Below the pieces are notes generated by a model that did not search any database, was not told the DNA's origin, and saw only the letters and a list, made by a program, of their open reading frames with translations. A stretch of 32,453 bases of DNA from Jimgerdemannia flammicorona (taxonomy: Eukaryota): contig RBNJ01000346.1 in assembly GCA_003990765.1 (NCBI GenBank), forward strand, positions 1 to 32,453. Reading direction: 5' to 3'. How positions within the stretch are numbered: position 1 is the stretch's first letter; every line of letters starts with the position of its first letter. This document shows positions 3 through 27,431 of the stretch, piece after piece. The position numbers and the translations under genes were made by a program.

Positions 3-1409
3 CTGAACAATGATGATGCTGACAAGCATACCCGGTACAATCAATACCAACTCAAGGACAATGCGATCTACTACAAGGACAGATTGTATGTTCCAAACAA
101 CCGAGACCTCTGAAGGACTATCCTATTTGAATGTCATGATGCCCCTACAGCTGGACATTTAGGATTTGATAAATGTTACGAAATTATCTCCCGAAACTTC
201 TATTGGCCCCGCATGGCAGATCAGCTCAAAACCTACATCACTTCCTGTGATGCCTGCCAAAGAAACAAGTCCTCAACACTAGCAAAACCCGGCTTACTCC
301 ACCCTATTCCAGTACCATCCGCAAATTGGGAACAAATCTCTATAGACTTCATTGTACAACTACCCCAAATCAAGAATGGAAAAGATGCAATTGTTGTCTT
401 TGTGGACTATCTCAGCAAACAAGCCCACTTTGTGCCTACTACCACTACTGCAACAGCACCGGATATAGCCACACTCTTATTTGACAACATCTTCCGCTAT
501 CATGGTCTTCCCAAAATCATTGTTAGTGACCGAGATCCGAAATTCACCAGCCACTTTTGGAAAGCCCTCTATGCGCACCTTGGAACAAAACTTGCACTAT
601 CCACAGCCTTTCACCCTGAAACCGATGGCCAAACCGAAAGAATGAACCGAACTCTGGAACAAATGCTAAGGAACTATATCTCCTACAGACAAGATGATTG
701 GCATGAATACCTCACCGCAGTCGAGTTTGCCTATAACAACAGCAAGCAAGCCTCTCTTGGAATGACCCCATTTTTCGCTAATACTGGACAAAACCCAAAC
801 ACCTCTTTGACACTTATCTGAACTACTGAAGAACCCTCCACAGTCGAAGCCATTGAAGAATTCCTACTCTGAATGTGCAATCTAAGCCAGATCGCAATTG
901 AGAATTTATCACGAGCTTAAGAACAACAGTCACAGTATGTTAACCAACACCGCCGAGAAGAAACTTTTGATATTGGAGAAAAAGTTCTACTAGACATCAG
1001 AGGATACCGAGTCGACAACCTCAAGCACAGACCATCCACAAAGCTGAACAGCAAGTTCATTGGACCATTTGAAGTCATTGCACAAGTCTCTCCAACCTCC
1101 TACAAACTGGCACTACCAGACACTATTAAGATTCACCCAGTCTTTAATGTTCAACGTCTCAAGCGATACAATGACAATGATGATGAGCTATTTCCAAATC
1201 GAACCACCAAACCACCTGTACCTGTCATCATTAATGACCAAGAAGAATACGAAGTTGAACAAATCCTCAACAAACGTGGCAACAAGAATCATCCCGAGTA
1301 CCTTGTCAAATGGAAAGGTTACCTGATCCACGATGCAACCTGGGAACCCAAGACCAATCTTCAGAATGCTACCGACCTAGTTCAGAAATATGATTCCTTG
1401 AACAACTAG
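3..1409 (+). pseudogene. pol: pol C-terminus of element A: HHCC zinc finger, DDE integrase core, GPF module, chromodomain
   Basis: One frame (includes ORF 213..821): HDAPTAGHLG...CDACQ, ISIDFI, IVSDRDPKF, ERMNRTLEQML, KFIGPFEV, IHPVFNV, EYEVEQIL...YLVKWKGY...ATWEP. In-frame TGA/TAA stops (e.g. 111, 819) are consistent with CGA/CAA mutation. Confidence 0.93.
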
Positions 1410-1820: not shown

Positions 1821-1833
1821 AAGAAGGGGAGAG
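1821..1833 (+). other. Polypurine tract of element A
   Basis: AAGAAGGGGAGAG, 1 nt before the TG LTR start; nearly identical to the element D PPT. Confidence 0.85.
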
Positions 1834-2123
1834 TTGTAAGCGCACAACCTCCAAGCCACCGAAATTACATGTCACCCTCTGAACAAAGCCACTGAAATCA
1901 CACATGACCTCTGAACAAATCTGGAAATCACCTGCTTGACCACAAAGCTGAGTCAAACCGAAGTCACAGCATATAAAGCTAAGTCAATATGAAGTTATGG
2001 AACACAAGATCTACACAAACGGAACCTTACCAATCAGGACCAAATGCATATATACTGAGCACCGAGACATGTTGAATCAGAGAACCAAAACAAACAACAA
2101 CCACAACTTCCAAATATACAAAC

Positions 2124-3221
2124 ATGACCACTGAGATTTACAACCACATCCATGCTAACATTTGGAATGCCATTGTCAACCAAGCTACACCCCCTCTGCC
2201 TCTCATGAATATCCATAGCCTGGCACCCCTCTACTTCATGGAAGCCCAATGGAATGCCCTGAACATGCTTAGTGAGGCCCACCAAATCGGACAAATCTCA
2301 AGCTACTACCAGATTGGCCGCCTCCTGGAAGACATGGTCGAACACCACCATGATACAGACATTACCCAGATGTCTCAACACCAGAAGCTCATTGCCCGCA
2401 AACATTGAGAACTCTTCTATGAGTACAACACCTTTATTCCCCGCCTCCGAGTTACTATTAGCGAAATGGTTGCTACCCTGTCCTATGGCCAAATCGATGA
2501 CATGATACAAGAAATCAACCACAAGTACCTCGAATACGTCCAGACCACAGACAGAACCTTCCTGCACCCTGATGACCACATCCTGCAAATGCCTCAAGTC
2601 GAATATGCCATGAAGGACATCTACGATATAATCCACTTCGACGAAGATGAAGCAGAAGACAATGATCCCTCTGACGCCAACATGACCTCTAGCCAAGAAT
2701 CTCTGCCAACCCTGATCACTCCACCAACCTTGCCGATGAACTTACAATAGTTCATAACTGCATATGAGACTTATTGGAACAATGACCACTGACACGAATA
2801 TCAACCCGTGTTCACCCCCAATTACTTCAATTATAATGAAGAGACTGGAGAATACAACCTGTACCTTCAGACAACCCTCGAGATTGAACCAACCACTCCA
2901 CCACCCGAGTACGAGCAACATGAACCACAGCCGCCAGCATACTATAACCCTGCAACTCATAGTGCTGTAACCTATAAAAGGTACGCAGATAGCGAATCCG
3001 ATAAAAGCGAAGACAGTACACCCATCCTTCGCCCACCAATACCTTATCCAGCATACGAAACAGACAATGCTATCCTGTGGGACGGAGATGAAGTCCCAAT
3101 GTATTACTACCTTAGCCAACAAGGAGAAGTAATCTGCGAACCATTATTCCTAGACGACTACTTCATCAGAGATGATGCAATCGATGGTGATATTATCGAA
3201 GACTACCCAGATAGTGCCTAA
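2124..3221 (+). pseudogene. LTR-embedded ORF of element A (~365 aa, unknown function, acidic/Pro/Tyr-rich C-terminal half)
   Basis: Track ORFs 2124..2408, 2466..2750 and 2808..3221 share one frame and join across three stops (TGA, TAG, TGA), each one C>T step from a sense codon. Confidence 0.75.
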
Positions 3222-3410
3222 ACCTATAATTAGTCTAGCAGTCATAGTATAGATAGATTAGCCTTGTACGACGTGACTGTGAACTGACTCAGCAGTCAGA
3301 TGATCTCTTGACATGTCAGATCACACTTGTACTATGTGACTGCATTCCGACTCAGCAAGGTACTTAGTGCTACATCCATATCTAGTATAGTCCAGATAGC
3401 CCCTCACTAG

Positions 3411-3418
3411 TATAAATA
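3411..3418 (+). promoter_or_regulatory. TATA box of LTR A
   Basis: TATAAATA downstream of repeated GACTCAGCA motifs (3285-3294, 3348-3357) and upstream of AATAAA near 3555. Confidence 0.55.
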
Positions 3419-3917
3419 CCCCCTCCCCCAGACCTCAGAATCTCAGACTCAAACAGACTTGAAGACTTGAACAATCCGAACACAACTCCTGAGCACTTCC
3501 CCACAATACCCCTTCACACAACTACTCCTAGTATAGCAATATCATGAATAGCAAATAAACCTATTCCATAACCCACAAACCACTCTTAAGTAAATCCACT
3601 CTCTGTTAGGTCCTACTCCTAACCCCATCACGAAATCTCCTAATTGGGTATTGTCTGCAGCAATACGCCAATTCAACTAAGCTGGTCTTAGTTTCTTGAA
3701 CTTCCTGAAATATGGAAAATCCTGAACATCCAGAACTAGTCCGAAAAAGGACTTTGGTTGAGACGTCAACCCGATCTTGAAATCAATAAGTGTAGAGGAC
3801 ATACTCCATACGAAATTGATCTTGACCATAAGAAAACGGTCTTCCAGAACATCCAGAATATCCAGAAAACCCTTCCAGAACTATGTAACGGTCACCCTAA
3901 AAAGTAACTCTCTTACA

Positions 3918-4188
3918 GCAAGATTGTAGTTTTCTTTTTATTATGGCAAATATTCTAAGATCTTTCTTTAGCATTAGTGAGGTTTCTTTCTAGTTCTCAA
4001 GTAGAGTCATATAAAGAGTAGTCTTTCCATTTTACTAAGTATTCTAAAGAGGTTTCTTGACCCCTTTTTATAACTCAGTAGTCTAAAATTTATTACATAA
4101 TATATTCTAGTTGTCCTTCAATTATTACTAGTGATGGCAGAAGTATTTTCCAATTAGGAATTTGATTTGGAGTATATTACTTAAGTAG
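3918..4188 (-). pseudogene. pol: Element C fragment 1: integrase C-terminus and chromodomain
   Basis: Minus strand reads ...VIIEGQLEY..KILDY*VIKRG..LEYLVKWKDYSLYDST*ELERNL. It joins in frame across element B to give IHNIFHISLLK (IHPVFHVSLLK-like). Confidence 0.85.
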
Positions 4189-4555
4189 TGTCACATAGTA
4201 GTCACTGAGTTCTTTAAATATATCAGATTCTATTCAAGGTATATCTCTTAGACTAACTCAAGTTTGTTATAAGCAAGTTCTTATTGGAGTATCTTCCTAA
4301 AGTCTTATAGTCCTTAATTTTCTTATCTTTAAACTGTCTTATTATCTCTTAGATTGCTTGTAAGAAAGTGTATATATTGTACTAAGAGAAACTAACTTTA
4401 TTTTAAAGGAAATAAGAGAAGTATTTATACAAAATATAATTCAATGATTGCTAAGATATAAAGCTAAATATAAATTCCAATAACTAAAATAAAATGTCAG
4501 GACAAGAAAAACTACTAAGTTTTAGGATCAGTACTGATAGTTATACAGGTTCAGG

Positions 4556-4680
4556 ATACTGGTATAATTCAGTATTATATTAGAATGCTGGTGCTGGCAT
4601 AACTCAGTATTACATCAGAATGCTAATACTGGCATAACTCAGTATTATATCAGAATATCAGTGCTGATATAACTCAGTAT
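4556..4680. repeat. 35-bp tandem repeat (~3.5 units) in the B 3' LTR
   Basis: Unit approximately GCTGGCATAACTCAGTATTACATCAGAATGCTGGT; also present in the 5' LTR (~18383-18506). Confidence 0.85.
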
Positions 4681-4692
4681 AATCAAAGAACT

Positions 4693-5544
4693 TTAGAGTA
4701 GAATATTCAAGACCATAGGGGCTTCATCCTCATCAGAGGTCAGGATATCTTTGAAGGAGATGAGGTCCATGAATTCATTATCATCATTATATAGGTTATA
4801 CATTTTGTATACTTCATATGCTTTGTATATATTGCACAGGATGACATTATTGCTAATGATGTCATCACATTTGGTAGTGGTAGTGGCAAGAACAAGGAGA
4901 TCTGGAGCTCTCCAATCTATGAGGTTCTCTTCCACAAAATAAGGAACAAATGTGGGGTCTTGGAGAGATCTAATCTGGATACTTGGGCCTTGAAATACTG
5001 AGATCAATCCTTGCAGGAATTGATCTGAGTTGTCCTGGAGAATGGGATATCAGAAGTCTTCTACTTAATCACTATTGAGAGTGATAGTAGACTGGGCTTC
5101 TGTAGCCACCCTAGCTTCTAGTGTATTGATATGGCAGGATGATAGGTCTCTGAAATCTGAGACTTTAACATACTCCAAGTTGGGGATCAACCATGATGCA
5201 TGCCTAAAGATCTGATGGATCTTCTTAGCTGTCCTTATTTTACATATATCTATGGAAGTGGTATCTTATAGCTTTTGAGTGCTGGTCTGTGAGAACTCTC
5301 AGTAGAGGAGGTTTCCTATTTCATACTTCTACCACATTTGGAGGTATTTGGTAGCAATGGTGATCCTTGTTTCCATTTCACAGCAGTAGAAGATATAATG
5401 ATAAGGGTCACTAGTACCCAGGTTGATACTAGGAGTCCTTCTTGAGTGGGTCCTCATGGCTCTTCTGATGTCTTAAAACATCCTTTCTTCAACTGAGGTG
5501 CCTTGGTGGTTCCTTAACTTTGAGGTTTAGTGAGTAGTATGCAT
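4693..5544 (-). pseudogene. LTR-embedded ORF of element B, 3' LTR copy (283 codons)
   Basis: ATG 5544 to TAA 4693, 852 bp, no net frameshift; includes track ORF 4693..5007; same length as the 5' LTR copy. Confidence 0.75.
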
Positions 5545-5820
5545 TTCATTTGTAGTAAGTCTTTGAGCTATTTTGGGATTGGTGGGTCTTGTTGGTTACT
5601 GCTACTGTGGTTCCTTGATCCTTCTTTTATATTTCTTAAGATATCTAAACTGTAGTCACAATGACTTACAGTTGGTCATCATTGCTCATCTCATATACTA
5701 TATGATCTTCTTGTGCTTCAATCTGGTGACTTATAAGGAAAGGCTGTCTTCTGTACTGATGTCATCATTCTGGGGTCACTGTTACATCTTTCTCCTAAAT
5801 AAAGATCTTCTTGAGCATCC

Positions 5821-6138
5821 TTATTCATTGGTCCAGTCTTGAAAAATTTGCTAATCCCATAATCTCTGGCAAAAGGTCAAAAAGTAGTATTTATGGGCTG
5901 GTATATTCTTTATATATTTTGGCATGATAGTAAAGGATCACTCCCTTCATATAGAGTAAGGGCCTAATTCTGATCTTGACCAATCAGTTGATAGTTCAAA
6001 CTCCTCTAGCTTTGAAAGTCTCACAGATGAGTAGTTACTGGTACCATATCTCTTAGAGAATGATCCAGACAGATAGCCTGCTGGTTATGGAACATGCTGT
6101 TATGATTCACAGACTAGAACCTCATGGATAGTCATCAT
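5821..6138 (-). pseudogene. Small ORF between pol and PPT of element B (105 codons)
   Basis: ATG 3 nt after the pol stop: MMTIHEVL...LSGSFSKRYGTSN...FELSTDWSRSELGPYSI. Five internal stops, all C>T-explicable. Similar segment in element D. Confidence 0.5.
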
Positions 6139-6141
6139 GTT

Positions 6142-7413
6142 TTACTTCTCTTGTATAGGTTTATAGTACTTCTTGAGTCTGTTTCTATACACTATAGTAG
6201 GCAGTATGATCCCTGAGATTTTCCTAAGCCAGAAGGTAGTACTCTTGATATCTTGCACATAGAAAGGTCCTTTCCATTTGGGCTCCAGTTTTTGCAACCA
6301 TAAGGCTTCTACTATATTTCGATATAGTAGGACCTTTTCTCTAATTTGGATGAGTTCTAGGGTCTTGTGATTCTTTTCTACATTCTTTCTTATCAGTGCT
6401 TGTGACTTGATAATGTAATCTTCTGCCTTCTTCCTGATTTGGTGTAGTTTCTGGATTTCTGCATCAACCTATCTCCAAGTTAGGTCTAGATTTGTAGCTG
6501 AGATTCCATCAGAATCTTCTTCTTCAAAGAGTAGTTCCCTTGGGGTAAAGTATGTGCTCTGTGACTATATATCTCATAGGACAGAGAGGACAGTTGGAAG
6601 ATAATTATCCCAATTCTCATATGTCTCTGAGATTTTCACCAGGATGTTCTTGAGGGTCTTATTGGTTCTCTCTGTCTGTCCATTTCCTTGAAAGTGGTAT
6701 ATGGTAGTCTTGATGTACTGGATCTTGTATTTCTGATATATTATCTCATAAAATCTATTGACAAATTCTGTGCCATAGTCTGTTGTGATTTGCTTCAGTG
6801 TCTTATAGTAGCAGATAATTTCTCAGTATAGAAAGTCAGCTATAGAGAGGGCATTGGCTTCTTGTAATACTTCTGCTTCTATCTATTTGGTAAAGAGGTC
6901 TACAATAACTATAATATAGTAGTTTCCTAATAGTGTTACTGGTAGTAGCCCAATGATATCCATTGTGATGTGGTAAAAGGGGATAGGCTCAATTCTTGAT
7001 GATCTGGATGCCTGGTCTTACTGATCTTATTTCTGTTTTTGGCACTTGTCATACTCTTTGACAAATTGGTACAGGTCTTCTTCCATCTTGAACCACCATA
7101 TAGTTCTTCTTACCTTGTTGTATATGTTGGTTCCTTCTAAGTATCCTTGCTTGTATACTTCCTTCATTACTTGATACTTCTTATATTTGGATATTACTAG
7201 CTTTTCTTCTTTTCTGAGTATAGTGTTGTCTAGTTCAAACTGTTTCCAAGTCTGGTTGATGATGGTGATTGTCCAGGGTTCAAGATGGTTGGGTATCTTC
7301 TACTACCTAAGATAGCTGATTAATCTATAGTATAGCTCCTTATTTATATTGAATAGTCTTGATGGGGGTGTTTCAGGGTATCCTTAAGAGTATATCAGCA
7401 TTGGTGTTAGTTC
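6142..7413 (-). pseudogene. pol: Element B RNase H tail and integrase
   Basis: Minus strand NTNADIL.R, decayed HHCC (V.EYDKCQ), MDIIGLL, ITTDYGTEF, ERTNKTLK, KLEPKWKGPF, ending RLKKYYKPIQEK*. No chromodomain. Confidence 0.88.
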
Positions 7414-7439
7414 TTTCTGAGTAGTGCTCCAAATAAATG

Positions 7440-7565
7440 GAGTTGATCCAGATGAGATTTGATTCAGGTTTATCATGTGATGGATTCGAATCAACTTGGA
7501 TTGGTCTTGTGATCTGATCCAGATTGATCTGGATTGATCCATCCAGATTGATCTATCTGAATTGA
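7440..7565. repeat. hAT left subterminal GATC/GGATT-rich repeats
   Basis: Short motif reiteration; TTTATCATRTGATGG occurs near both element ends in inverted orientation. Confidence 0.65.
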
Positions 7566-7828
7566 AATCTTTAGTGACATCACCCTTTCTTTTGTTCATT
7601 TCACTCTTGTTTTTTTTTTTCCTACCACACTTTGGTAACATCACCTTTTCCTTTGTTCCCTCTCTTTTCTTTGTTCTTTTTCTTTATTCTTTTCTGCCAC
7701 ATTATGAGCAAACAAAACAGCAGCCCTTAATTCATATGTTGGTCCAGTCTACTCATTTTTCACCCTACAATAATCATCAAAAGAGGGAGTATTCAAGATA
7801 GAAATGTACTCTCTGCTGATAATGTTAG

Positions 7829-9839
7829 ATTCTTTCTCATATGGACAGCACACAAGCTACTCATTGAGAGTCAAAGGGGTGATGGTGGTGGCGATGGTGA
7901 TGGCAATGACAATGGTAATGGCAGGGATGAGGGTGAATTCTGGCAATAACTCATGGCAGCCCTTTGGACCTCAGAATTCACAGACCTCACAGCTATGTAC
8001 ATGGTAGCTTTTTTGGAGCAGCCAGTAGTAGATGTAGGTTGCTCTTTTCTGCCACTACTTTTTACTTGTTTAAATTCCCCCAGTACAACCTGATTCACCT
8101 TATGCTCTTCTTAGGGTTCACAGCTCTATGGCAAGATCTGCTGACTTTATTCGCAACATCTGGTCAAGATGAAGAAAGGCTGGAGGACATTGCAGGGCAT
8201 GCCTTTGGTAACTGAGCTGTTGAGTCAATACATCATATGGCAGAGGTCTCAAAAGGAACAGAAGCAAGCCTTTATGAGCAATCTTGTACAAATTGTGCAA
8301 CTTGTGTAACTTGTCAGCATACAGCTCACTCACTCACTCATACTCTTTTTCTGAAATACCCATCTCTATGTTTTATTTAATTTCATTTTTTACATGGTCT
8401 TCTCCTAAAAAACACCCACACCCACATACAACCTGTCTGCATGCAACTTATCCACATGCAGCCCATCTATATACTTATCTTCATCTCTCAGATCAGGGCT
8501 CAGTTTCATTAGAAAGGAGAGTTCAAAGTTACCTGAGTTCAACCATGTCCAGCATCTGATCAAATAGAGAAATTCGAGAGTAAGATGTTCAGTATGAGTA
8601 GTACCAGCATTGTCATCAAGACTTGGGGGTCTACATTTGAATCAGAGCCAATCATTCTTGACCAAGGGGTCCATTGGCCAGCAGAAGTAACCAACAATGA
8701 AGAGAACTATATCTTTATTAATAAATACAGAGAGGTGGTTGCGATGGTGATAAGGAATCTCTATGGTGATAAGCTTTGCTACCACATCAACAAGATTTGT
8801 AAGAATTGCATCAAATACTAGGTAGCAGAAAAGAGGGGGCAAAAAAAGCAAGGAGGGGGGGTTTGGACAGGAATTGGGTATACTTCAATATTGGTGAAGG
8901 GTGGGTTCTGGAGTTTTGAAATCCCCCACACTCATCTCCCTTTTTTTTTTTTCTCCTCCCCAGATAAATTACACTCTTCACTAATATACTCTTTTTGATA
9001 CAATTCTAAGGATGCACAAGATTCTGTACCCCTACTGGAACTTTAGAAGTACTATTAAAGAGTAAACTACACATGAGTATGACATGGTCTATACAGCAAT
9101 GGCAGCTATGATCTGGGGTTCTTTGAGCAGATTGGTAGAGCATATGGTAGGCCAGCTTAGTGATGATCTTGATATGACTGTATGTACATTCTTGGTGCAA
9201 TTTAGTATACCATATGAGGTGAGAAGCTGTTTTTTTAGAGTGCTACAGCCCAGGGGATTTCTGCAGCCTGGGGGGTTTCTGTCCCCTCACATACAAAAAG
9301 GACTGACTGGTTGCCATCTATTTTGGCAGGTTTCCAAGCCAGGACTCCTGGGGCTGAACCAAGGGCAGGCATCTACCAGCACAGCCTAGCAGTATGAGGT
9401 CCTGGGCCAAGGATTCACCCAACTGTATGCTCGTGTCACATTAGGATATGTTGGATGCAATATTTCTCTGCCCACACACATAGACAACAATATTACCCCA
9501 GTAATGTTTTATGTCCTGGAAAGGAAGGGCCCAATCTGAGAGGATAGCAGAGGAGTCTGGTATGACCTCACCTACAGTTTCGGGGTCCCATTTGCAGCCA
9601 ACATAGCCATCCTCTTCCAACCACATGACTACTATGGCACCATCACCTTCGAGGAGAGCTCAGATACAATAGTTGTTGCACTCACAACAGATGACAGGCT
9701 CATCAAGGCCTGGGACTGGTGGGTGGAGCAGTTTTTGTGAAAGATAGGCAATCTTTCACAAGGGATAGGCAGTCTTTCATAAGGGTTAGGCAGTTATTTT
9801 ATGTGGATTGGGTAGTCTTATGTAGGGGATTGAGCTGAG
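7829..9839 (+). pseudogene. Putative second spliced gene carried by the hAT (at least 5 exons, unknown product)
   Basis: Exons ~7829-8033, 8115-~8300, 8492-8821, 8964-9218, 9330-~9839, joined by GT..AG introns that can all be phase 0, with pyrimidine tracts. Includes track ORFs 8585..8821 and 9084..9389. Several C>T-type stops. Confidence 0.55.
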
Positions 9840-10090
9840 CACCTCTTCTGTAGCACTAGTTTAGCCATTATGTAGGGCCCTATTGGTCCCTTGGCCCTGC
9901 TCTGTAGTGCTATCAGTATGGCACTGTAGCATAGGACCAGGGTGTCTGTGGAACCTGAACTGATGATGGGGCCCAAATCTGTGGTAGACTTCAACTGCTG
10001 AAAGTACTCTCCAACCACCAGAAATATCCTCTGACTACCAGAAGCACTCTCCGACCACCAGAAGCACCCTCTGCTCTGGACTTCTTAGTA

Positions 10091-10755
10091 GCTTAGGGCT
10101 GCCCCTATGCTGCTGGCAGAGGGCTACAAATTTTGTACACTCCCTCTGCCTACCTCACCTGTTCTGGACACTTGCAGCTTGGGGCTGCCCCTTGCTGCCA
10201 GCAGAGGGCTGCAAATTTTGTACACTCCCTTGCCAACCCCATATCCACCAACCCCACCAACTGACCCCACCCACTGACCTGGGTGCTGATAGCTTGGGGC
10301 TGCCCCTCACTACTGGTGGAGGGCTGCAAATTTTGCTTGCTCCCTCTGCCTGCTCCACCTATCCCAGACACTTGTGGCTTAGGGTTGCCCCTTGCTACTG
10401 GCAGAGGGTTACAAATTTTGTGCACTCTCTCTGCTGACCCTGTGCCCACCAACCCCACTGACCGATCCCACCCACTGACCCAGGCACTGACAGCTTGGGA
10501 CTGCCCCTCACTGCTGGCAGAGGGCCACAAGTTTTGTACACTCCCTCTGCCAACCCCCCCTCTGCCAACTCTCCCGACTGAGACACTTGTGGCTTGGGGC
10601 TGCTCCTTGCTGCCAGTGGAGGACTGCAAATTTTGCACACTCTCTCTGCTAACTCCATGCCCACCCACCGACCTGCCCACCAACCCAGGCACTGATAGCT
10701 TGGGGCTGCCCCTTATTGCTGGTAGAGGGCTGCAAACATTACATACTCCCTCCAC
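10091..10755. repeat. GC-rich higher-order repeat: 7 copies of a ~58-bp core with two alternating spacer types
   Basis: Core GCTTGGGGCTGCCCCTTGCTGCTGGCAGAGGGCTGCAAATTTTGTACACTCCCTCTGCC at ~10091, 10177, 10292, 10377, 10493, 10592, 10698. Confidence 0.9.
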
Positions 10756-10908
10756 CACCACCACTAACTCTGCTGATCACTACCTACTTGGGCTGCAAAC
10801 TCTGGGCTAAGTCCTTAGGGTTTTTTACCTTTTTATTATTTTTGAAAGATATTAAATATTTCACAAGGCCAACCAACTTATCTGCAAACCCCTAGGACCT
10901 ACTGAATT

Positions 10909-13601
10909 TTAGCGGCCTAAGCCCCACTAAGACTTCAGATACATACATGCTCAGATTGTCTCAGCATTCAGTGTATATCTCTTTGGGGCAATGAGGTCCA
11001 CCTCACCTGAGAACACCCACTCGATAGAAGCACTGGAGGCAGGAATCGCCAGGTAGTCCTGAGTCATGCTATATAGACTGGAGAAGTCCATTTGATACAG
11101 CTGCATACCCTGGTGGGTAGAGTGGTGGTTAGATTAGTAGGTTAAATTGGTCCAATGCCTACCTAACAACCCACCTTCTACCAGTTGAGCACCTCTGTAC
11201 CCTTCAGCAAGATCATGTGATCACTGGCAAGGTAAATGGTAAGTTTGTCTATTGATGACAGCTCTTCCACTGATGGCTCCCTCTTCCTCTTTCTGCTAAA
11301 GTAAATGTGGGACAAGAGGGATCCCTCAGCATATTTGTCCAGACTTCAGCTAGAACCTTGCAGCGGTGCATAGTTTTTCTAGTACACTTCAATTATGGTC
11401 TACTTAATTCTCTCAATGAAGTACTGCTCCCAGCCCTGATCTTTATAGTATTGTAGCTTTAAGTGTGGGTCTAGCACTGTTCAAAGAAAAGGAAAGAGTG
11501 AGTTTTTGTAGGGGTTTCTCTGTTTTGGAAGGGGTAATAGCCATATGCTGACATTGACATACCTATACTGATTGAGTATAGTGGTATCTGTTTGGGAGTA
11601 GTACTTTCTGAGCTTGCTAAGAGTAACCTCTACAGCATCTCTCTGATCTGAGCTCAACTGTAAATCACCACAACCCTCCAGCCTATCCTTGAGCTTGTCC
11701 TTTAGTCAGTCAATCAGAAGGTTGTATACTAGTATTGCTGAGCTTATTGTTGGGGTCGTTTGTTTGACTATATCCTTTATATAATCATCAAAACACTGGC
11801 AGTTATATGTGGTGAGGTATTGTATTGTGTAGAGGCAGACAAAACAAGTATAGAGGCTGACAAAATAAGTATAGAGCCAGAGAAATTACCACTTACTTCC
11901 AAAACTCTGACAACATTCCTAAGTATATCTCACTTGCTTTCACCTAGAGCCTTGGCCCATATTTCCTTGTCAGCAGCCACTGTTGAATCTATTGGCTTTT
12001 TTTTGTTTTTTGTTTTTTTTTTTAAAATAAATCTTCAATTATCTGAAATAAGTTACTTTAGCTGACTGAAGAAAAAAAGAATGCATACCATAGCAAACTC
12101 TAGCACATGTTGGATCATTGCAAATATTGAGTTCTAACATATACAGATGTCTAATATAAGCTCTTTCAGGGCTAAACTGATTGCCCTACACTATACAGCA
12201 AATTTGTCTCATCATTGTAGGAATGATTGGACTGACACAACTAGTTTGTGCAGCTTGGAAATTATACTCAGGGCCTCTCCTCTCTTGGATATTTTGTCTA
12301 TGTACATAAGATAGTCCTGAACAGTGAGGTTCAGTACATGGGCCTAGCATCACACACAGCAGCTTTCTGTACCAAAGGCCATATTTTTCTGTTTGAGGCT
12401 GGCCACTAAAACTTTGAAAAATGTTGAGTTATTTGTAGTATTGTTTGTCATAATGGCTAAAATCTGTACTTGAAATATTTGGTCAGTGAATTTATGTGAA
12501 AATAAATAACCAATAAAATCTGGTTTGTTTTAAGACCTCCCTCAAAACACCAACCTGATGGTAAGCCCCCCTTTTTTACCTTAGTTGTGATCCCAAGCTC
12601 CTGAATACAACTAATAAAAGTATCTACAATGTTGTCTCCAGAATGAGGGCCAACAAGTTTGACAAAGTCAAGGGTGAGATATTTAAGCTGCCAATCGAGG
12701 TCAATCCAATGACTGGTAATACCCAGAAACAAAATTGCATTGGGGGATATCCATGTGTTGATCATAAATGAAATTTTGCCTGCTGAATTCTGCTTATTGA
12801 ATGTGAGGTTAAATTGGTGAGCTCTTTTATATAATTCAGCTTACAAAGGTCACAGTACTGCCCTTATTTTATCTGAAGTATCTGGCAGAGATTATTGTAC
12901 TCCTTCCTATAGGCCTCCAGGACATCTTTGTGAATAGTATTAGTACTTAGCAAATATAAATCATGCTTGAGAAGGCCAAAGATGCTATGCAATTGATCAC
13001 TCTTGATGGTTGTGAATAGCTGGTCTGTATATACAATCCAGTGAATGAGCTGATTTCAAAATTCTACCAAAGAGTATGGCTAAATATTTTTGATTAAATA
13101 GCATTATTAGTATAAAAATAGTTGGACAATTAGATAAATATACCCACTACAGCTTGGATGTCGATTTTATTTGTCTCTATGTTCTTTTTTATTTTGTCAG
13201 AGTACTTGTCTTTTATGTATTAATTCATGTTCAAAGTTATACTATCAAGCATTTTGAACTTCTGGCTGGTGCAGTTTATGGAGGTGGATGAAACAATATC
13301 ATATGTGTGTCAAAACAAAAAGTGTCAATAGGTGCATCTTAATTTTTTACCTGCAATAATTACAAATAACATCATCTCCTATCTTAACATAATGTTGCCA
13401 GATTTTAGAGTGAGGATTGCATGGAAGGTGTGGAACTATCAGAGATGTTTGACTTGAAGCATCATTGGTACTGTGAACTGTTGAAGACTGATCTATTGAT
13501 ATATGTGTTTGTGTATTTACATATATATGTATATGCATATATGTATATTGTATATGCATGTATGTATATTGTATTGTAGATGTATCTGACATATGAGTCA
13601 T
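10909..13601 (-). pseudogene. Intron-containing hAT transposase
   Basis: BED-finger start (SKIWQHY...VICNYC), ISFMINTW...FLGITSHWID...GPHSGDNI, C*AHVLNL (CxxH), decayed TRWNST, VLDPHLK, dimerisation domain DYLAIPASSASIEWVFS. Start coordinate approximate. Confidence 0.88.
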
Positions 13602-13604
13602 GTA

Positions 13605-13920
13605 GAGGATTTGGATTAGAGGATTCAGTTGAAGGATTCAGATGAGAATTTGGATTGAAGGATTCAAATTGGAGGATTTGAATTGGAGGATTCAAATTGG
13701 AGGATTCAGATTGAGTGATTCGGATTGAGTGATTCAGATTGAGTAATTCAGATTGAGTAATTCAGATTGAGTAATTCGGATTGGAGTAATTTGGATGAGT
13801 AATTTGGATGGGGTGATTTGGATGGAGTGATTCAGATTAATCTGAGATGATTCAGATGGCTTTGGATTTGAAATTCAGATCAAACCATCATATGATAAAT
13901 CGAATCTGGATTTGATTTGA
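13605..13920. repeat. hAT right subterminal 14-bp tandem array (GAGTGATTCGGATT-like)
   Basis: Directly visible tandem units next to the TIR; transposase-binding role inferred from known hAT subterminal repeats. Confidence 0.85.
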
Positions 13921-13941
13921 ATTGACTCATTTGGAGCACTA

Positions 13942-15268
13942 TTCCTGAGCAGTGCTTGACAGTATAGTCATACTCTTGCAGTCTGTAGATCCATCTAGTA
14001 TATATTCCTTTGAGGTTTAGAGTGTAGAATAGCCAGACAAGAGCAGAATAGTCTGTTTGAATAGTGAAGTGTTTCCCAGCTAGGTAGTAGTAGAACTTAT
14101 CTACTGCCCAAACTACTGCTAAGCATTCAAGCTTGCATGACTCATAGTTCTGTTCTGCTCCATGGGTACCTTGACTTGCATAGGAGATGACATATTCATG
14201 TTCATCTTTCTTCTGAGCTAGAACTGCTCCAAGTCCTATAGTACTTACATCTGTCTGCAGGATGAATTCTAGATTCCAATCTAGTCTTCTGAGAATAGGT
14301 GCTTGGGTAAACTTGGTCTTGAGTTCATTGAAGGTTTCTTGACATTCCTTGGTCCATTTGAATTTGGTTTCCTTCTTCAGTAGCTCATAGATAGGTGCTG
14401 TAATGTTGGAGTATCCTTTGATGAATCTTCTGTAGTAGCTGGCCAGTCCAAGGAAGACATAGACTTCTGTAGTCATTCTGGATCTTGGGTAGGCTACAAC
14501 AGCCTCAATCTTCATAGAGTCTGTGTGGATTTCAGTCTGGTTGATGAGGTGTCCTAGATAGGTGATTTCTTGAGCCACAAACTTGTATTTCTTAAGCTTG
14601 ATATAAAGGCCATACTCTTTGAGCTTCTTGAGGGCTAGCTGTATATGATTAATGTGTTCCCATATAGTATTGCTGAAGATGATCACATTATCAATATAGA
14701 CAAAGAGCTATTTTCCAATCTCATTACTGAAGACTCTGTTCATCATTCACTGGAAACTTACTGGAGCATTGCACATTCCAAATGGCATTCACAGGTAGAT
14801 ATAGGTGGCATCAGGTGTAATGAAGGCTGATTTCTCACTGGTATCTTGAGTGAGACCAATCTGATAGAAGCTTGAGAACAGATCTAAGGTGGTGTAATAT
14901 TTGGCTTTACTTCCAAGAGTGGTAAGAATTTCTTGAATATTTGGTAAGGGTTACCTATTCTTCTTAATGATAGTATTGAGCTTTCTGTAGTCAATGCAGA
15001 GTCTTGGCACAAACTCTCCAGGCTTGCTTTCTTTCTTTAGGGTGAGGACAATGGGTAAAGCCCAGGGACTGATAGCTTACTTGATAATTCTGGCTTCTTC
15101 CATTTCCTTGAGTTCTGTTTGCAGCCATTTTCTGTAGACAGGTGGTATGGATCTGGCTTTCTGATAGATGGGCTTGGTATCACCTATGTCAACTTTGTGG
15201 TAGTACTTGGGTTCTTGATTATAGATATCCCTGAAGTCTGTAGCAAGTACTCCTTCATTCTGGTACAA
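13942..15268 (-). pseudogene. pol: Element B reverse transcriptase and RNase H
   Basis: RLCIDYRKLN, MPFGMCNAP, YIDNVIIFS (YIDD), YLGH, FLGLASYYRRFIKGYS, ILQTDVS, LECLAVVWA, TIQTDYSAL. Confidence 0.95.
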
Positions 15269-15374
15269 GACCTTGAGAAGTTGTCTTCCAGGGGAATGTT
15301 TTCTCCAATAGTATATATATGCTTATTCTAGTCCTTGTCTTTTTTGTGTTTAAGTTTGGTAATCTTGATGGTAG

Positions 15375-15790
15375 TATAGGCTCCTCTTCTAGTAGATCCG
15401 AAGCCTTGTTCTTCTCTCTTGGTCTTGATGAGTTTGATGGCTTCAGTGATCTTGGGTTTCTTGATTTTGTGAATCAGCATCTGGCCAATCCTGTCATGCT
15501 TTTTAACTTTGAATGGGGTGGTGGGGTTGTGATTCCTGACTATAAGAAAGATCTTGCCAGTGTAATCAGAGTCAATTACTCCTCCTTCAACTGAGATTTC
15601 GCTTTTGGCCAGACTGCTTCTGATTTTGATAATTCTGGTATGGTTCTCTAGCAGCTTGACTCCAATTTCAGTACCAAGTAGAGTAGTGGTCTGTGGTTCA
15701 AGGGTAGTATCTTGAATGCTGGCAAGGTTCATTCCTATGGCTCCTTCAGTCTTATATTCTGGGATCTTGGCTTTAGAGTGGAACTTCTTG
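15375..15790 (-). pseudogene. dut: dUTPase domain of element B (between protease and RT)
   Basis: IRSSLA, GGVIDSDYTG, DRIGQM, R...GFGST: trimeric dUTPase motifs 2-5. Confidence 0.9.
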
Positions 15791-16189
15791 ACCTTAAGAG
15801 TGATATCTGGTTCTTATTCCTCCTCATCATCACTGTTAGCTTGAAGCTCTGGGGGCTGGTCATCTTCTTTGGCTTTCTTTTTTACTTTGGCAGCTTCTTG
15901 CTTATGTTTCTGTTGGCAGATTTTCCTGACTTCACTGATACAGGACCAGCAGTCATTCAGGTATTCAGAGCAGTACATCCTAGTACCATGGGGGTATCTT
16001 CCTTAAGGGGCATAGCCATTAATAATCTTATTGTACTACTGCTCATCTGTAAGCTTGGGTGTCTTGTTCTTGTTCTTGTTTACCAAGTATATGAAGACTT
16101 CTGTATTCTCTTAATCTCCTTTCTCCATGTCTGGTAGGACTCCTTTGTAGATATTGATAGAGACTCATACCTTTCTTCCTCTATAGTTG

Positions 16190-16510
16190 ATCTGCATCTT
16201 CTGGGCATTGAGGTCAATGATGGCCTTGGTCTTGTAAAGCTATTGATTGTCAATGAGGATATCATAGTTAGTAGCACTTGTAACAATCATATCTACTGGG
16301 ATGGTAGCTTCTCCTATCTTGATGGAGACTTCTCAGATTTTGCCAAGGAGAGTAGTTGTATACCATCTACTATAACATAGACCATTTTGGTGGACTCTTC
16401 AATGTCCCAGCCTAGGCAGTCAATTGTCTTCTTGCTTATGAGACATCCTCCAGCACTGGTATCAATGATAATATTAAAGATATAGTCTTCAATCTAACAT
16501 AGAGTATAGG
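16190..16510 (-). pseudogene. Aspartic protease domain of element B
   Basis: IIIDTSAGGCL (DTGA-like) and a decayed ILGND-like motif. Limits approximate. Confidence 0.75.
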
Positions 16511-17049
16511 TTGATGTCTTGCACTGGTCTTCAGATTCTTTACCTGAGTTTTTAGATTCTTCCTGTACATTGTGAGCTTCTACAATCTTATACTCTTGAT
16601 TCTTGGCAGTAGTTGCAAGTCCTACTCTCAACTGCTGTCTAAATGCAGAGACTTTGGCTAGCTGTCCAAAAGTAGCATTGATCTTCTGTTCCTTGAGATC
16701 CTTATAGATATCATACTGATGAATCTTGGTCTTGTATAGCTTCTGTTCCTTCTTGCTTTCACTTTCTCCTGAGACTGGAGTAGTGTCTTCAATGATTTGG
16801 CAGGCAGCTTTATCTAACTCCAAATCTTGATCAATCTCCTTGGGTTGAGTCTTGCTTTGAATAGTAATAGCTGGGGTCTTCTTTAGTCTTCCAACTAGCT
16901 TGCTGTTACTCTTCTTGTTATAAGACTTGGACTGGGTTCTGGTACCTTCAGTAGCAGAGTAGAATTCAAGCTCCTTATAGTATTCTTCATCATCAGTATT
17001 GCTAATCTCCTCAATGACTACTGCATTAGTTTGTTCTCTGGTTCTGCTA

Positions 17050-17940
17050 ACATTGCTTGATTGGGCTTTGCATCTTATTTCAGTCATGCAATTCTTTTCA
17101 TAGTGGCCTTCTTCTCTATATCTGAAGTATGTAATATTGCATTTTTCTATAGCAGCTGCAAATCTCTACACTGATCTCCTGTTGGCACTTTGGACTTCTC
17201 TAACAACATTATCAAGGTGTGCAGTCATCTCAGTGAACTGCTTGACAAGTTCCTCTACTGGGTCAGCTTTGGCTGCCTTGGGGGGTAGGTGGAATTGGTT
17301 GTCTGTTTACAACTGTAGCAGGTATGATACTAGTTGGCTTTGATGACTCCATCTTGATACCAGTTATTTTCTCCATTGAGTGTTCAGCAGAGTATCTGGC
17401 AGTCCAATATCTCTATGCAAAGACTACTTTCTGATCAAGGGTCAGTGCAGCTGGGGTAGACTGGATTGCTAGGGCAATTTCAGAGTGAACTCCTTTGAGG
17501 AAGATTAAATCTGCTATTTGTTCCTTGAGAGCATCATCATAGCCAGCCAAGACAATCTGATGGCAGATTCAGATATAGAATGAGTTAGGATCTTTACTAA
17601 GTCCTTGGCAGATAGTATTGAGTTGATTCTTGAGAGCTTGCTTGATCTCTTCAGTATAGTATATTGTTCTGAGGAAAACCTTTATGTTAGCAAGTTTGGC
17701 TATATCATTATCAGCAATAGTGGCTATATTGAACTTGTCTCTGGTAGGTCCTCTGAGACTGACTGGTAGAAGGGCCAATTGTGTATCCATATCAAGGGCT
17801 CATATGGTGGTAAATTATTCAAAGTCTTTAATAAAGGTCAGGATTGACTCTTCAGTAGTATATCTATAGAATGTGGGGGATGTATTTCCATCTTGTTTGA
17901 ATTCTTGCAGGAGTGACTCTTGTAGTCAGGGTAGTTATTA
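17050..17940 (-). pseudogene. gag: gag of element B with decayed CCHC knuckle
   Basis: PTFY...FIKDFE...SLRGPTR; YFRYREEGHYEKNC at ~17085-17130 is CxxCx4Hx4C with Cys>Tyr changes. Limits approximate. Confidence 0.75.
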
Positions 17941-17989
17941 TGGGGTTGTTCGTTTTTCAGCTTGAAAGTGAGGGATTCATCTTGAATCA

Positions 17990-18007
17990 CCAGTCAATGA
18001 GGCACCA
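17990..18007 (-). other. Primer-binding-site-like sequence of element B
   Basis: TGGTGCCTCATTGACTGG begins 3 nt after the LTR end; cognate tRNA not identified. Confidence 0.6.
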
Positions 18008-18010
18008 AGT

Positions 18011-19612
18011 TGTCATATAGTAGTCACTGAGTCCTTCAAATATACCAGATTCTCTTCAAGGTATATCTCTTAGACTAACTCAAGTTTGTTATAAGCAAGT
18101 TCTTATTGGAGTACCTTTCTAAGGTCTTATAGTTCTCAAACTTCTTATCTTTAAACTGTCTTATTATGTATCTCTTAGATTGTTTATAAGGAAGTGTGTA
18201 TATTGTACTGAGAGGAACTGACTTTATTTCAAAGAAAATAAGAGGAGTATTTATACAAAATATAATTCAATGGTTGCTAAGATATAAAGCTAAATATAAA
18301 TTTCAATAACTAAAATAAAATGCCAGAACAAGAAAAACTGTTAAGTTTCAGGGTCGGCACTGATGGTTATATAGGTTCAGGATGCTGGTATAATTCAGTG
18401 TTACATCAGAATGCTGGTGCTGGCATAACTCAGTATTACATCAGAATGCCAGTACTGATATAACTCAGTATTACATTAGAATGCTGGTGCTGGTATAACT
18501 CAGTATAACCAAAGAACTTTAGAGCAGAATATTCAAGACCATAGGGGCTTCATCCTCATTAGAGGTCAGGATGTCTTTGAAGGAGATGAGGTCTACAAAT
18601 TCATCATTATCATCATATAGGTCATGCATTTCATGTACTTTGCATGCTTTGCATATGTTGTGCAGAATGATGTTATTGCTGATGACATCATTACATTTAG
18701 TGGCAGCAGTGGCAGAAACAAGGAGATCTGAAGCTCTCCAGTCTATGAGGTTCTCTTCTACAAAATAAGGAACAAATATGAGATCTTGGAGAGATCTAAT
18801 CTAGATGCTTGGGCCTTGGAATACTGAGATCAATCCTTGCAGAAATTGATCTGGGTTGTCCTGGAGAATGAGATGCCAGAAGTCTTCTACTTCATCACTA
18901 TTGAGAGTGATAGTGGACTGGGCTTCTGTAGCCACCCTGGCTTCTAGTACATTGATACAGTGGGATGACAGATCTCTGAAATCTGAGACTCTAATATACT
19001 CCAAGTTGGAGATCAACCATAGTGCATGCCTAAAGATCTGATGGATCTTCTTAGCTATCCTTGTTTCACATATATCCATGGGAGTGGCATCTTGTAGCTC
19101 TTGAGTACTGGTCTGTGAGAACTCCCAGCAGAGGAGGCTTTCTATTTTGTACTCCTATTACATTTGGAGGCATTTGGTAGCAATGGTGATCCTTGTTTCC
19201 ATTTTATGGTAGTAGAGGTTATAATGATAAGGGTCACTAGTACCCAGGTTAACACTAAGAGTCCTTCTTGAGCAGGTCCTCATGGCTCTTCTGATATCCT
19301 GGAACATTCTTTCTTCAACTGAGGTACCTTAGTGGTTTCTTGACTTTGAGGTTTGGTGAGCAGCAGACATTTCATTTGTAGTAAGTCTTTGAGCTATTTT
19401 GGGATTGGTGGGTCTTGTTGGTTACTGTTACTGCAGTTCCTTGATTCTTCTTTTATATTCCTTAAGATATCTGAACTGTGGTTACAATGACTTACAGTTG
19501 GTCATCATTGCTTATCTCATATGCTGTATGATCTTCTTGTGCTCCAATCTGGTAGCTTGTAAGGAAAAGCTATCTCCTGTACTGATGTTATCATTCTGGG
19601 GTCACCATTATA
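18011..19612 (-). repeat. 5' LTR of element B (1602 bp)
   Basis: Direct repeat of 4189..5786; start decayed to TATAATGG from TGTAACGG. Confidence 0.93.
18519..19370 (-). pseudogene. LTR-embedded ORF of element B, 5' LTR copy (283 codons)
   Basis: MSAAHQTSKS...; includes track ORF 18801..19079; internal stops mostly at different codons than in the 3' copy. Confidence 0.75.
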
Positions 19613-19616
19613 GTAG

Positions 19617-21415
19617 TGAGATATGAAATATATTATGTATCTTCATACCTTAAGAGAATTCTAATTGATATAATATATTAGATATTATTTCTTTAACTGA
19701 GTAAGGTCTAATATATTCTAGACATAGACTTTATTTAGAGTATCTAGTCTGATTTGCTACAGTTACATTAGAGACTTCTAAGAGAACTAAGTCTCCTACT
19801 TCAAAGAGAACTTCTCTTCTATGTTGGTTAGCATATTTGCTTATTTTTTTTTTATAATTACTTAGACTTTGCTATTTATTACCCATCTATTACATATAAA
19901 TACAATATCTCCTCACACTACCCAATATCCCTAGAGAGCCTCCCCCCCCCCATACTCTCTCACTTAAAAATCACCTTGCCACCCTCCACACCAATCTTCC
20001 TCTCACTCTGTCTATAGATTTTCTCTACCAAACAGTACTGCTGATCTCTCTGCAGACCCTATCTCAACCACCATGTCCTCTAACAGCCCTTCTTATCTCA
20101 CCAGCTACTCTCTCAAACTCATATGTTTTCCTTCTTCAAATATAAATAACCAGTAATCTATCAGTTCTACTCATACCACTAATATCTAACCCAAAGTCAG
20201 CCACTCTCTCTCCACCCCCTCTACTAATCTATCTATCAGATCTTTCCATTACTCCTACTTACCATCCTCTCTGTACATAAGCATATTTAACTTGTTGCTC
20301 CTGAGGCTTTTGTAATTCTTTTTGTACTAACTATATAATATTTCCAATAGTTACTATAAGGTCTTCTACTGCAAGTACTATAGATTTTTCTATAGTTGCC
20401 AGAGTTCATAGGTATTGACCAGTATTCATAAAGAAAGATATTATTTGAATAGATGACTGTTTGGTATTATTATAGACAAATTCTGCTAATAAGAGATATT
20501 AGTTCCAGTTATCTTATTTGTAACTATAGAATATTCTCAATATTTGTTTGAGAGTTCTGTTAGTTCTTTCTGTCTGATCATCAGTTTGTGGATAGTAGAT
20601 AGTAGAGAATGATAACTTAGTATTTATCATTCCAAAGAATAGTTTTCAGAAAGTACTTATAAATTTGGGGTCTCTATCTGAGACTATTACTAAGAGTAGT
20701 CTATACAGTTTAAAAACTATATATAAGAAAATCTTTGCTGTTTCTAGAGTAGTGACTATAGTAGTAGTAGGTTCAAAGTATATCTATTTGCTAAGCCTAT
20801 TTATAAAAACTACTATGGCATCCTTTCTTTAGTTGGTTTTAGATAGTCTTACAATAAATTCTAAGAAAATCTAGTTTCAATTTCTAGTAGATATTAGTAG
20901 AGATTGAAGAAGTTCTAGAGGTACTTAATTTCTTACCTTATTTCTTTGATATAGGTTACAGAAATAACAGAAGTCCTTGATATCATCTGTCATTATTGAT
21001 CAGTAAAAGTTTTGAGTTATATTAATAAGAGTTTTTTTATAACTATAATGTTCTACAAAAGGTATATCATAGTATTTTTATATAATTTGAAGTCTCAGTT
21101 TTTGGTTTTTAGGGATTAAGACTCTTGTTTCATCATAGTACAATAATTCTTCTTTGAGGGTTAATTTTTTGGTCAATTTTTGAGTCTTTAGTCATTAGTT
21201 GGAGTTTGTAAGAATTTATAAATTTCTTAGTAGGTAAGATTATAGGCTTCTCTGATCTGATTCTTAAGATTATTGGCTATAATTATAATAGCTGTTATTT
21301 ACTCTATTTGTTCTATTCTTGAGAGAGAATTAACTACTATATTTGTTTTTTCAGAGCAGTATTCTACTGTGAAGTTATAATCTACTAAAGCTTCTAACTA
21401 TCTTACTTGTCTTTT
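19617..21415 (-). pseudogene. pol: Element C fragment 2: RNase H end and integrase (interrupted at ~19843-20279)
   Basis: [55 protein letters not shown]; heavily degraded. Confidence 0.85.
19843..20279 (-). mobile_element. Short poly(A)-tailed retroposon (5'-truncated LINE or SINE-like) in the element C integrase
   Basis: T10 tract at 19844-19853; AATAAA (minus, 19875-19880) ~20 nt upstream of the tail; flanking duplication AGCATATTT(..)CTT at 19830 and 20280; host frame QQVKYA-NQHRR rejoins. Confidence 0.7.
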
Positions 21416-21819
21416 TGTAACATTTTAGTATAGTTTATTTCTTTTCTTTATCTTTCTTCAATATTCTATGACCTTTTAGTACTTTCTGAATGCTTAGAAA
21501 TCCTTTCTTGGTACTGAGCATCCTCTAGTACTTATTTAGCTAGTTACTGAATGTTCTGGAAACTTGTAGAACTTTATTTGTCATCATTTGTCATCTTTGC
21601 CAAGAACTTTCCTCTTGGCATTTTCCTTTGATTTCTCAGATTCTTCTGGATCCTTCTTTCCGATCTTGTATAAATATCCTCTTTGTTCTCATGAATAAAG
21701 TCTCAGAATATTTTCTCTAAGAAATCCTTTGAGAATACTTAAATCCTTAAGTATCTCTTTGAGCTACTTAGGACTACTAGAACTAGTTGCTTCCTCATTT
21801 AGAAACTAGAACTGTTATA
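21416..21819 (+). repeat. 5' LTR of element D (404 bp)
   Basis: TGTAAC...GTTATA (decayed GTTACA); TATAAATA at ~21669. Confidence 0.93.
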
Positions 21820-21887
21820 CTTGGTAGTAGCAGTTAAGTTACACCTAGCCTTATCAAGACACCTCTCAAGATATCAGTCACAACACT

Positions 21888-22888: not shown

Positions 22889-22904
22889 GGTCAACCAGTT
22901 GAAC

Positions 22905-27426: not shown

Positions 27427-27431
27427 CTTTT

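Follow-up and report, generated by a model that had tools for sequence, protein, structure and literature searches.

Accessory genes carried by a long terminal repeat (LTR) are known from a few retroviruses, while those of retrotransposons are known from the internal region only. Genes inside or overlapping the unique 3' (U3) part of the LTR occur in mouse mammary tumour virus (MMTV; sag), the foamy viruses (bel region) and human immunodeficiency virus (HIV; nef), with MMTV sag being a complete sense open reading frame (ORF) in the U3 of a long (>1 kb) LTR, upstream of the LTR promoter. The bel/tas genes of foamy viruses, which reach into U3, include the gene for Tas, a transactivator expressed from an internal promoter and equipped with an acidic activation region, and the C. 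elegans retrotransposon Cer1 is said to encode a protein, CERV, that is needed for nuclear export of genomic RNA. Here, we consider a nest of Ty3/Gypsy elements on contig RBNJ01000346.1 of Jimgerdemannia flammicorona (GenBank assembly GCA_003990765.1, positions 1 to 32,453 of the forward strand; this whole stretch of 32,453 nucleotides is called the window), two of which, termed A and B, each probably carry a decayed accessory gene inside the LTR.

Among retrotransposons, additional ORFs (aORFs) are represented by gene23 of the plant element Grande, by RIRE2, Retand and the env-like ORFs of Athila/Bagy2, and by ORF0 of Retrosat2, RIRE3 and RIRE8 (PMC7264820; PMC3485330), with ORF0 of Retrosat2 situated upstream of gag (PMC3485330). 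The sole fungal example in the accessible part of a review on the subject is the antisense gene of Boty (PMC7264820), designated brtn (bioRxiv 10.1101/2021.04.13.439636). The genes of A and B resemble the aORFs covered in these sources in being extra, lineage-restricted and fast-evolving ORFs beside gag-pol without known domains (PMC7264820; PMC3485330). On the other hand, those aORFs are internal, either preceding gag or following pol ahead of the 3' LTR, and frequently antisense, while the genes of A and B are sense, inside the LTR and, as observed for B and expected for A, present twice per element. The accessible text of the review places no additional ORF in an LTR (PMC7264820), and no sequence similarity was found between the genes of A and B and the known aORFs. 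Searches of open-access text by exact phrase retrieved no ORF in the LTR or U3 of a retrotransposon, papers on a gene in an LTR being those on MMTV and foamy virus only; a gene inside a retrotransposon LTR would be an accessory gene of a kind not described in this literature.

With MMTV sag, the gene of B, and that of A as far as its 3' LTR is placed by the polypurine tract, share the arrangement as a whole sense ORF in the U3 of a long LTR, upstream of the promoter. Sag, though, is a membrane glycoprotein of type II from a retrovirus of vertebrates, while the A and B proteins are acidic, lack a hydrophobic segment and derive from a host that is not a vertebrate; apart from chance-level matches, searches of Pfam and the PDB up to an E value of 1 gave no sequence or profile match. 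The foamy virus bel/tas genes and HIV nef, as accessory genes at the 3' end that overlap U3, provide by analogy the favoured functional model for A and B. The foamy virus genes differ in that they start in the internal region, while the genes of A and B would be wholly contained in the LTR, and no homology was detected. The likeness to CERV of Cer1 would consist in an element-encoded accessory protein acting on the element's own RNA, to which the arginine-rich N-terminus and the leucine-rich end of the B protein would fit.

Position of the two genes relative to the LTRs

The gene of element B is shown directly to lie inside the LTR. B is a Ty3/Gypsy LTR retrotransposon with paired LTRs, a target duplication of 4 bp (CTAC, at 19616-19613 and 4188-4185), a primer binding site, a polypurine tract and the pol order reverse transcriptase, RNase H, integrase. 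Its LTRs comprise the following features.

18011..19612, minus strand: 5' LTR of B, 1602 nt, starting with TATAATGG (TGTAACAG/TGTAACGG in other copies) and ending with ..TATGACA
18007-17993, minus strand: primer binding site TGGTGCCTCATTGAC, separated from the 5' LTR by three bases
4189..5786, minus strand: 3' LTR of B, 1598 nt, 88.6% identical to the 5' LTR over 1595 aligned nt
5796-5787, minus strand: polypurine tract AGGAGAAAGA, directly before the 3' LTR
18519..19370, minus strand: LTR gene of B, copy in the 5' LTR, 283 codons plus stop, 3 in-frame stops after the ATG
4693..5544, minus strand: LTR gene of B, copy in the 3' LTR, same frame, 7 in-frame stops
19450..19457, minus strand: TATAAAAG, candidate promoter of the B gene, a weak consensus 80-87 nt upstream of the ATG
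18350..18528, and 4524-4702 in the 3' LTR, minus strand: 35-nt tandem repeats, enhancer-like, directly after the stop of the B gene
18246..18256, minus strand: GTATAAATAC in the 5' LTR, 264 nt past the gene stop, with the LTR end about 240 nt further on

Both LTRs contain the gene, with 242 nt of LTR in front of it and 264 nt between its end and the GTATAAATAC box; as in U3 genes, the whole ORF is thus enclosed between the first base of the LTR and the promoter. A first-pass annotation of the window, made from its letters, had posited such a frame in the B family, and the frame exists inside both B LTRs (minus strand, 19370-18519 and 5544-4693). It contains 4 and 7 stops in the 5' and 3' LTR copy, compared to approximately 16.5-17 expected, with 0 and 6 of 2000 shuffles being as open; the stretches used for shuffling take in two codons upstream of the ATG, hence 4 and not 3 stops in the 5' LTR copy. 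Beyond the three known places, tblastn with 8 family proteins detected no further copies of the A and B genes in the window.

In element A, which is on the plus strand, the position of the gene inside the LTR is a good inference from the features below.

2124..3221, plus strand: LTR gene of A, 365 codons plus stop, decayed
1821..1833, plus strand: polypurine tract AAGAAGGGGAGAG, followed by one T and then TGTAAG at 1835
1835..3660, plus strand: 3' LTR of A, start well supported, end uncertain, at about 3660 (..TGTCTGCA) or up to 3918 (..CTCTTACA)
2048..2054, plus strand: TATA-like ATATATA, candidate promoter of the A gene, a weak consensus 70-76 nt upstream of the ATG
3255..3357, plus strand: duplicated 40-nt unit, enhancer-like, with its copies 63 nt apart and 75% identical, between the gene stop and the TATA box
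3410..3419, plus strand: GTATAAATAC, candidate main promoter of the A LTR, the same 10-mer as in the B LTR
3554-3559, plus strand: AATAAA, about 140 nt after the GTATAAATAC box

The claim of one long frame of 365 codons at 2124-3221 on the plus strand is borne out by the stop counts, with the addition that the frame is broken by three in-frame stops (TGA 2406-2408, TAG 2748-2750 and TGA 2790-2792). Expected are 16.8 +/- 3.9 stops, none of 2000 mononucleotide shuffles is as open, and the remaining two sense frames over the gene contain 13 and 31 stops. As the relatives described below read R, Q and W at the three positions, each stop is a single transition away from a sense codon. The frame is also located, as had been proposed, downstream of the polypurine tract (1821-1833, TGTAAG at 1835) and upstream of the TATA box (TATAAATA, 3411-3418), starting 289 nt inside the LTR and ending 190 nt before the GTATAAATAC box. 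The antisense frame over the gene (2298-3143, minus strand) is nearly open too, with 4 stops and ORFs of 147 and 133 aa, which we attribute to the sense strand being rich in A and poor in T. A real gene antisense to the A frame was considered and rejected, because A is scarce on the antisense strand and because it is the sense frame to which the database relatives align (82% positives).

Between 1400 and 4000, the tract at 1821-1833 is the sole purine run of at least nine bases that is followed by TG, and it is nearly identical to the tract AAGAAGGGGGAGA of the neighbouring element C, which adjoins the verified start TGTAAT of the 3' LTR of C. The end of the A LTR, of which the window holds no second copy, is estimated; the position at about 3660 is set by analogy with the distance of 240 nt between TATA box and LTR end in B. 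A stretch of 35 nt at 3884-3918 reads TGTAAC...CTTACA on the plus strand and TGTAAG...GTTACA on the minus strand, with its first 14 bases resembling B-type LTR starts, and may be either the stump of an LTR of a fourth element, D, or the true end of the A LTR, whose end is therefore uncertain. Because both ends receive the region from the polypurine tract to R during reverse transcription, the 5' LTR of A should, by this mechanism, carry the gene as well. In the arrangement common to A and B, an LTR of unusual length (1.6-1.8 kb) would then contain, in its 5' (U3-like) part, a sense-strand accessory gene that starts 240-290 nt past the first base of the LTR and ends 190-264 nt before the GTATAAATAC box, with a short repeat block in between.

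Relatives, kinship and nature of the gene products

A full HMMER pass of the A product over 1.84 billion representatives identified exactly two related proteins, which form 2 clusters. P0002, a stop-free protein of 247 aa, shows 65% identity and 82% positives to A residues 115-364 and has the C-terminal end in common, while P0006, with 128 aa, is 89% identical to A residues 1-128. Relatives of the B product are P0007/P0013, P0008, P0009, P0010/P0014 and P0011, to which P0015 was added by profile, giving 6 clusters at 90% identity. For seven B relatives, mostly stop-free, identity amounts to 57-69% with the window copies and to 63-80% with P0008, the alignment reference; with the exception of P0011 they share the terminal ..LN[FI]LL. 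The blocks ILQDNxDQFLQGLIS.FQGP and YFVEE..IDWRA are invariant among the relatives, and their indels, without exception in frame, occur in the variable acidic tail alone. When the frames were evolved in simulation to equal amino acid divergence without constraint, they stayed stop-free in 22-49 of 2000 runs for A and in 31-119 of 2000 runs for B. For both genes, as for conserved aORFs, stop-free relatives thus exist at 57-89% identity, most of them with the same C-terminal end; scans of metagenome contigs, viral contigs and genome contigs confirmed no DNA of these relatives. On these sequence grounds both frames are probably real, although decayed, lineage-restricted accessory genes inside LTRs. 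Of the earlier proposal of an LTR-borne accessory gene there remain real genes with stop-free relatives, located in both LTRs of B and, by its tract, in the 3' LTR of A, while the notion of a single conserved family is left without support.

That notion had arisen from an alignment by eye, in which the A and B genes were read as homologous. The motif then noted (YxIGxLL, IA+K...F, IPxL) is present, and the top alignment of hhalign has the same register, but every sequence or profile test of homology stays at chance level. In Smith-Waterman alignments, A reaches a z value of 0.9 against the 5' LTR copy of B (85 of 500 shuffles as good) and of 1.7 against the 3' LTR copy (37 of 500). The family profiles, which are shallow, with a number of effective sequences (Neff) of 1.2 and 1.6 that the databases searched did not deepen, align in hhalign with a score of 18.0, an E value of 0.13 and a probability of 0.44%; 19 of 200 column-shuffled B profiles are as good, and the reversed B profile scores 18.3. 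Restricted to the N-terminal halves, the score is 14.5, with 35 of 150 shuffles as good. The AlphaFold2 models, at predicted local distance difference test (pLDDT) values of 30.9 and 35.1, are too poor for a fold comparison, and their similar helix order carries little weight. Homology of the A and B genes is thus not supported and should not be passed on as it stands.

One ancient LTR-borne accessory family that has diverged beyond ordinary detection is a doubtful, though not a far-fetched, explanation of the two genes. It would account for the alike position, orientation and LTR layout in A and B, down to the GTATAAATAC box and the TGTAA termini, for the agreement of the hhalign alignment with the register seen by eye, at residues (YxIGxLL, [IV]A[RK]K...F, IPxL) that are conserved within each family, and for the acidic character of both proteins with their acidic, hydrophobic tails. 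The low-confidence models also show a similar helix order with an offset of approximately 15 residues (A, H3-20 and H34-73; B, H18-35 and H47-83), and accessory ORFs of related elements may drop to about 10% similarity, as is reported for ORF0 of Retrosat2 (PMC3485330). Against it stand the chance-level outcome of the Smith-Waterman, hhalign, column-shuffle, reversed and N-terminal-half tests alike, the origin of the helical patterns from models with pLDDT 31-35, and the relationships among the elements. The integrases of A and B are only 28% identical, and of C and D, which are closer to A, neither has a long LTR visible in the window. Because of this distance between A and B, and because the nearer kin C (55%) has an LTR of 407 bp without the gene, separate acquisitions are likelier than one family, and the two genes are most likely such separate acquisitions.

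As judged from composition and searches, both products are orphan, soluble and very acidic proteins. Their isoelectric points are 4.0-4.6 and their net charges -48 (A) and about -20 (B), and membrane-like segments are absent, with a maximum 19-residue Kyte-Doolittle mean of 0.57-0.97 and none above 1.0. Being very acidic and devoid of a membrane-like segment, the proteins are not Sag-like or Env-like. Of the traits to be expected in a Tas-like transactivator, or in the transactivator or anti-silencing factor suggested by the earlier annotation, the one observed is the acidic, soluble, non-membrane character. Each is predicted to consist of a helical N-terminal half and a tail rich in proline, tyrosine and acidic residues; in A, such residues abound throughout the C-terminal two thirds, while intact B relatives show an arginine-rich N-terminus and an acidic run followed by a leucine-rich C-terminal end. 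No Pfam family was found for 5 of 6 proteins, and the sixth, the window's own B copy, gave a chance-level PPR match (E 0.11). B has no match among PDB sequence profiles; two PDB matches of A, to a kinetochore protein (E 0.27, 26 residues), were rejected as chance. Feature scores in the ESM Atlas reach 0.83 at most for B, below the bar of 0.9, A has no usable match there and the structure rows stay at TM scores of at most 0.33, while the Atlas' own models have pLDDT values of 0.35-0.39.

Expression and competing explanations

As reverse transcription copies the region from polypurine tract to R to both ends, each new insertion receives two copies of the gene and each solo LTR one. Since the gene occupies the 3' end of the genomic RNA and, in the 5' LTR, precedes the promoter, it needs its own promoter or a splice. 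The TATA-like sites 70-87 nt upstream of both ATGs suggest a short transcript, which would also be possible from solo LTRs, and we tentatively propose, as the likeliest of the alternatives though at less than even odds, that the gene is read from such a transcript, which starts at the TATA-like site and ends at the LTR polyadenylation site. The acidic product would act in the nucleus on the expression of its own element, as an acidic activator or an RNA adaptor, on the model of foamy virus Tas and Cer1 CERV, respectively. The scenario in its entirety, in which two distant Ty3/Gypsy lineages independently put a gene into U3 so that each LTR, solo LTRs included, is a self-contained gene, equipped with its own promoter and using the terminator of the LTR, whose acidic product regulates expression or counters silencing, is speculative, and we hold it to be rather doubtful.

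Two routes differ from the short transcript. The main alternative is a spliced subgenomic mRNA, as for MMTV sag. It is, on the other hand, improbable that transcription starts mainly in front of the gene, at the 5' TATA-like site, by which the frame would come to lie in R/U5 as the first cistron, a leader ORF inside the LTR comparable to ORF1 of Ogre or ORF0 of Retrosat2. While the TATA-like sites in front of both ATGs would fit such a start, and aORFs upstream of gag are known from plant elements (PMC3485330; PMC7264820), an R of approximately 1.5 kb would be required. In both elements, moreover, the strong GTATAAATAC box and the repeat blocks are situated downstream of the gene, as in a usual U3 enhancer-promoter, and in A the AATAAA follows the GTATAAATAC box after about 140 nt.

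Several observations speak against accessory genes inside LTRs as outlined here. The status of the A gene as inside the LTR depends on one polypurine-tract match and the replication mechanism, with the 5' LTR located outside the window. The relatives are known solely as anonymous proteins predicted on contigs of 720-2375 nt (ENA, JGI/IMG), databases list open frames by construction and are thereby biased towards intact copies, several relatives begin at internal methionines, P0011 diverges at the C-terminal end, and the families are tiny (2 clusters of 1.84 billion representatives for A, 6 clusters at 90% for B). The function is deduced from composition alone, both AlphaFold models being unusable (pLDDT 31 and 35), and the TATA-like sites, located in AT-rich DNA, match the consensus weakly. 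That the frames are not working genes at all, so captured host or foreign fragments or frames open by chance or composition, with apparent conservation due to recent copying and open-frame databases, would agree with the lack of a known domain or fold in either frame, with the very small families in which every relative is an anonymous short-contig prediction, and with the nearly open antisense frame over the A gene (4 stops), which indicates that composition matters. We nevertheless regard it as quite improbable, since the relatives are open to the same stop at 57-76% amino acid identity, which just 1-6% of the unconstrained simulations achieve, since conservation is uneven, with invariant blocks beside variable regions and all indels in frame, and since the sense frames are far more open than shuffles. 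Still less is to be expected from an ordinary sense additional ORF in A, between pol and a short 3' LTR that starts after 3221. The LTR pair of A is indeed not visible in the window, the A relatives C and D have short LTRs, and the type of additional ORF encountered most often is a sense one placed between pol and the 3' LTR (PMC7264820). From 3221 to the TATA box, in turn, no purine run is followed by TG, with runs of at least nine between 1400 and 4000 confined to 1821, 3743 and, within the gene, 3121; the working tract of C is almost the same as that at 1821-1833, with the same TGTAA start after both, and B proves that a layout with the gene inside the LTR exists. Such an ordinary ORF is accordingly very improbable, and a gene inside the LTR is preferred for A as for B.

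Neighbouring elements, decay and implications

Besides the LTRs, the nest contains the following elements and domains.

From base 1, plus strand: element A, entering the window inside pol, with the pol stop near 1409 (Pfam domains)
114-821 and 921-1409, plus strand: end of A pol, integrase followed by SH3 and chromodomain (Integrase_H2C2 2.1e-20, rve 1.2e-08, SH3_Tf2-1 1.1e-18, Chromo 9e-17)
4189-19612, minus strand: element B, 15.4 kb, with paired LTRs
15331-15813, minus strand: dUTPase domain of B (Pfam E 1.2e-24)
13883-14707, minus strand: RVT_1/RNase H of B (Pfam)
7299-6577, minus strand: integrase of B, with a zinc finger at 7030-7299 (Pfam)
21416-27429, plus strand: element C, with its 407-bp LTR pair in the window
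19611-21086 and 3964-4200, minus strand: element D, the fourth, with integrase at 21086-20415, part of the SH3 domain at 19841-19611 and part of the chromodomain at 4200-3964

With an integrase followed by a C-terminal chromodomain, and all four Pfam matches above the cut-offs, A is a chromovirus-type Ty3/Gypsy element. Its pol stop is separated from the polypurine tract by approximately 410 nt (1410-1820) that are apparently non-coding, which is long for the 3' untranslated region of a chromovirus. According to integrase identity (A-C 55%, A-D 42%, A-B 28%), C is the nearest relative of A in the window; the 407-bp LTR of C is without a gene, and within the window neither C nor D shows a long LTR. 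In B, Pfam detected no chromodomain after the integrase. RNase H and integrase of B are approximately 5.6 kb apart, and the intervening stretch at about 7700-13350, which is without a Pfam match and includes a G+C-rich (53%) tandem-repeat block with units of approximately 100-200 nt and repeats at 10071-10776, is probably a further nested insertion. The pol of D is broken in two by the insertion of B, and the 3' end of A adjoins the remnant of the 3' side of D. Close to the end of the window, the Gypsy pol of a second, more decayed B-like element has a dUTPase domain (29621-29938, minus strand, E 7.4e-09), and a third B-type LTR start in plus orientation (32238-32453) runs off the window.

The two LTRs of B differ by 176 transitions and 6 transversions, with 116 of the 176 transitions at CpA, and CpG in the window amounts to 0.12 of expectation. 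This looks like the signature of hypermutation, similar to repeat-induced point mutation (RIP) or by deamination, and not like ordinary ageing, and the divergence of the LTRs is therefore unable to date the insertion of B. The ratio of nonsynonymous to synonymous differences (pN/pS) between the B gene copies is 0.57, which was rejected as a sign of selection, as the other sense frames give 0.57 and 0.60; with pN/pS equal across the sense frames, the copies have decayed neutrally since insertion, and it is the transition bias that makes the ratio low. The window copies are dead, having been inactivated by transition hypermutation.

With respect to biology, a gene in the LTR doubles with each insertion and survives in the solo LTR, so that it could supply its product in trans long after the loss of gag-pol. 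Annotation pipelines for transposable elements (TEs) that mask LTRs would never report such genes, which fits with families seen only as anonymous metagenome predictions, and two small orphan protein families are gained that are testable for a role in the expression or silencing of retroelements. If true, such an LTR gene with its acidic product would be the retrotransposon counterpart of the retroviral U3 genes, and the reading of solo LTRs and 'long LTRs' in TE-rich genomes would change.

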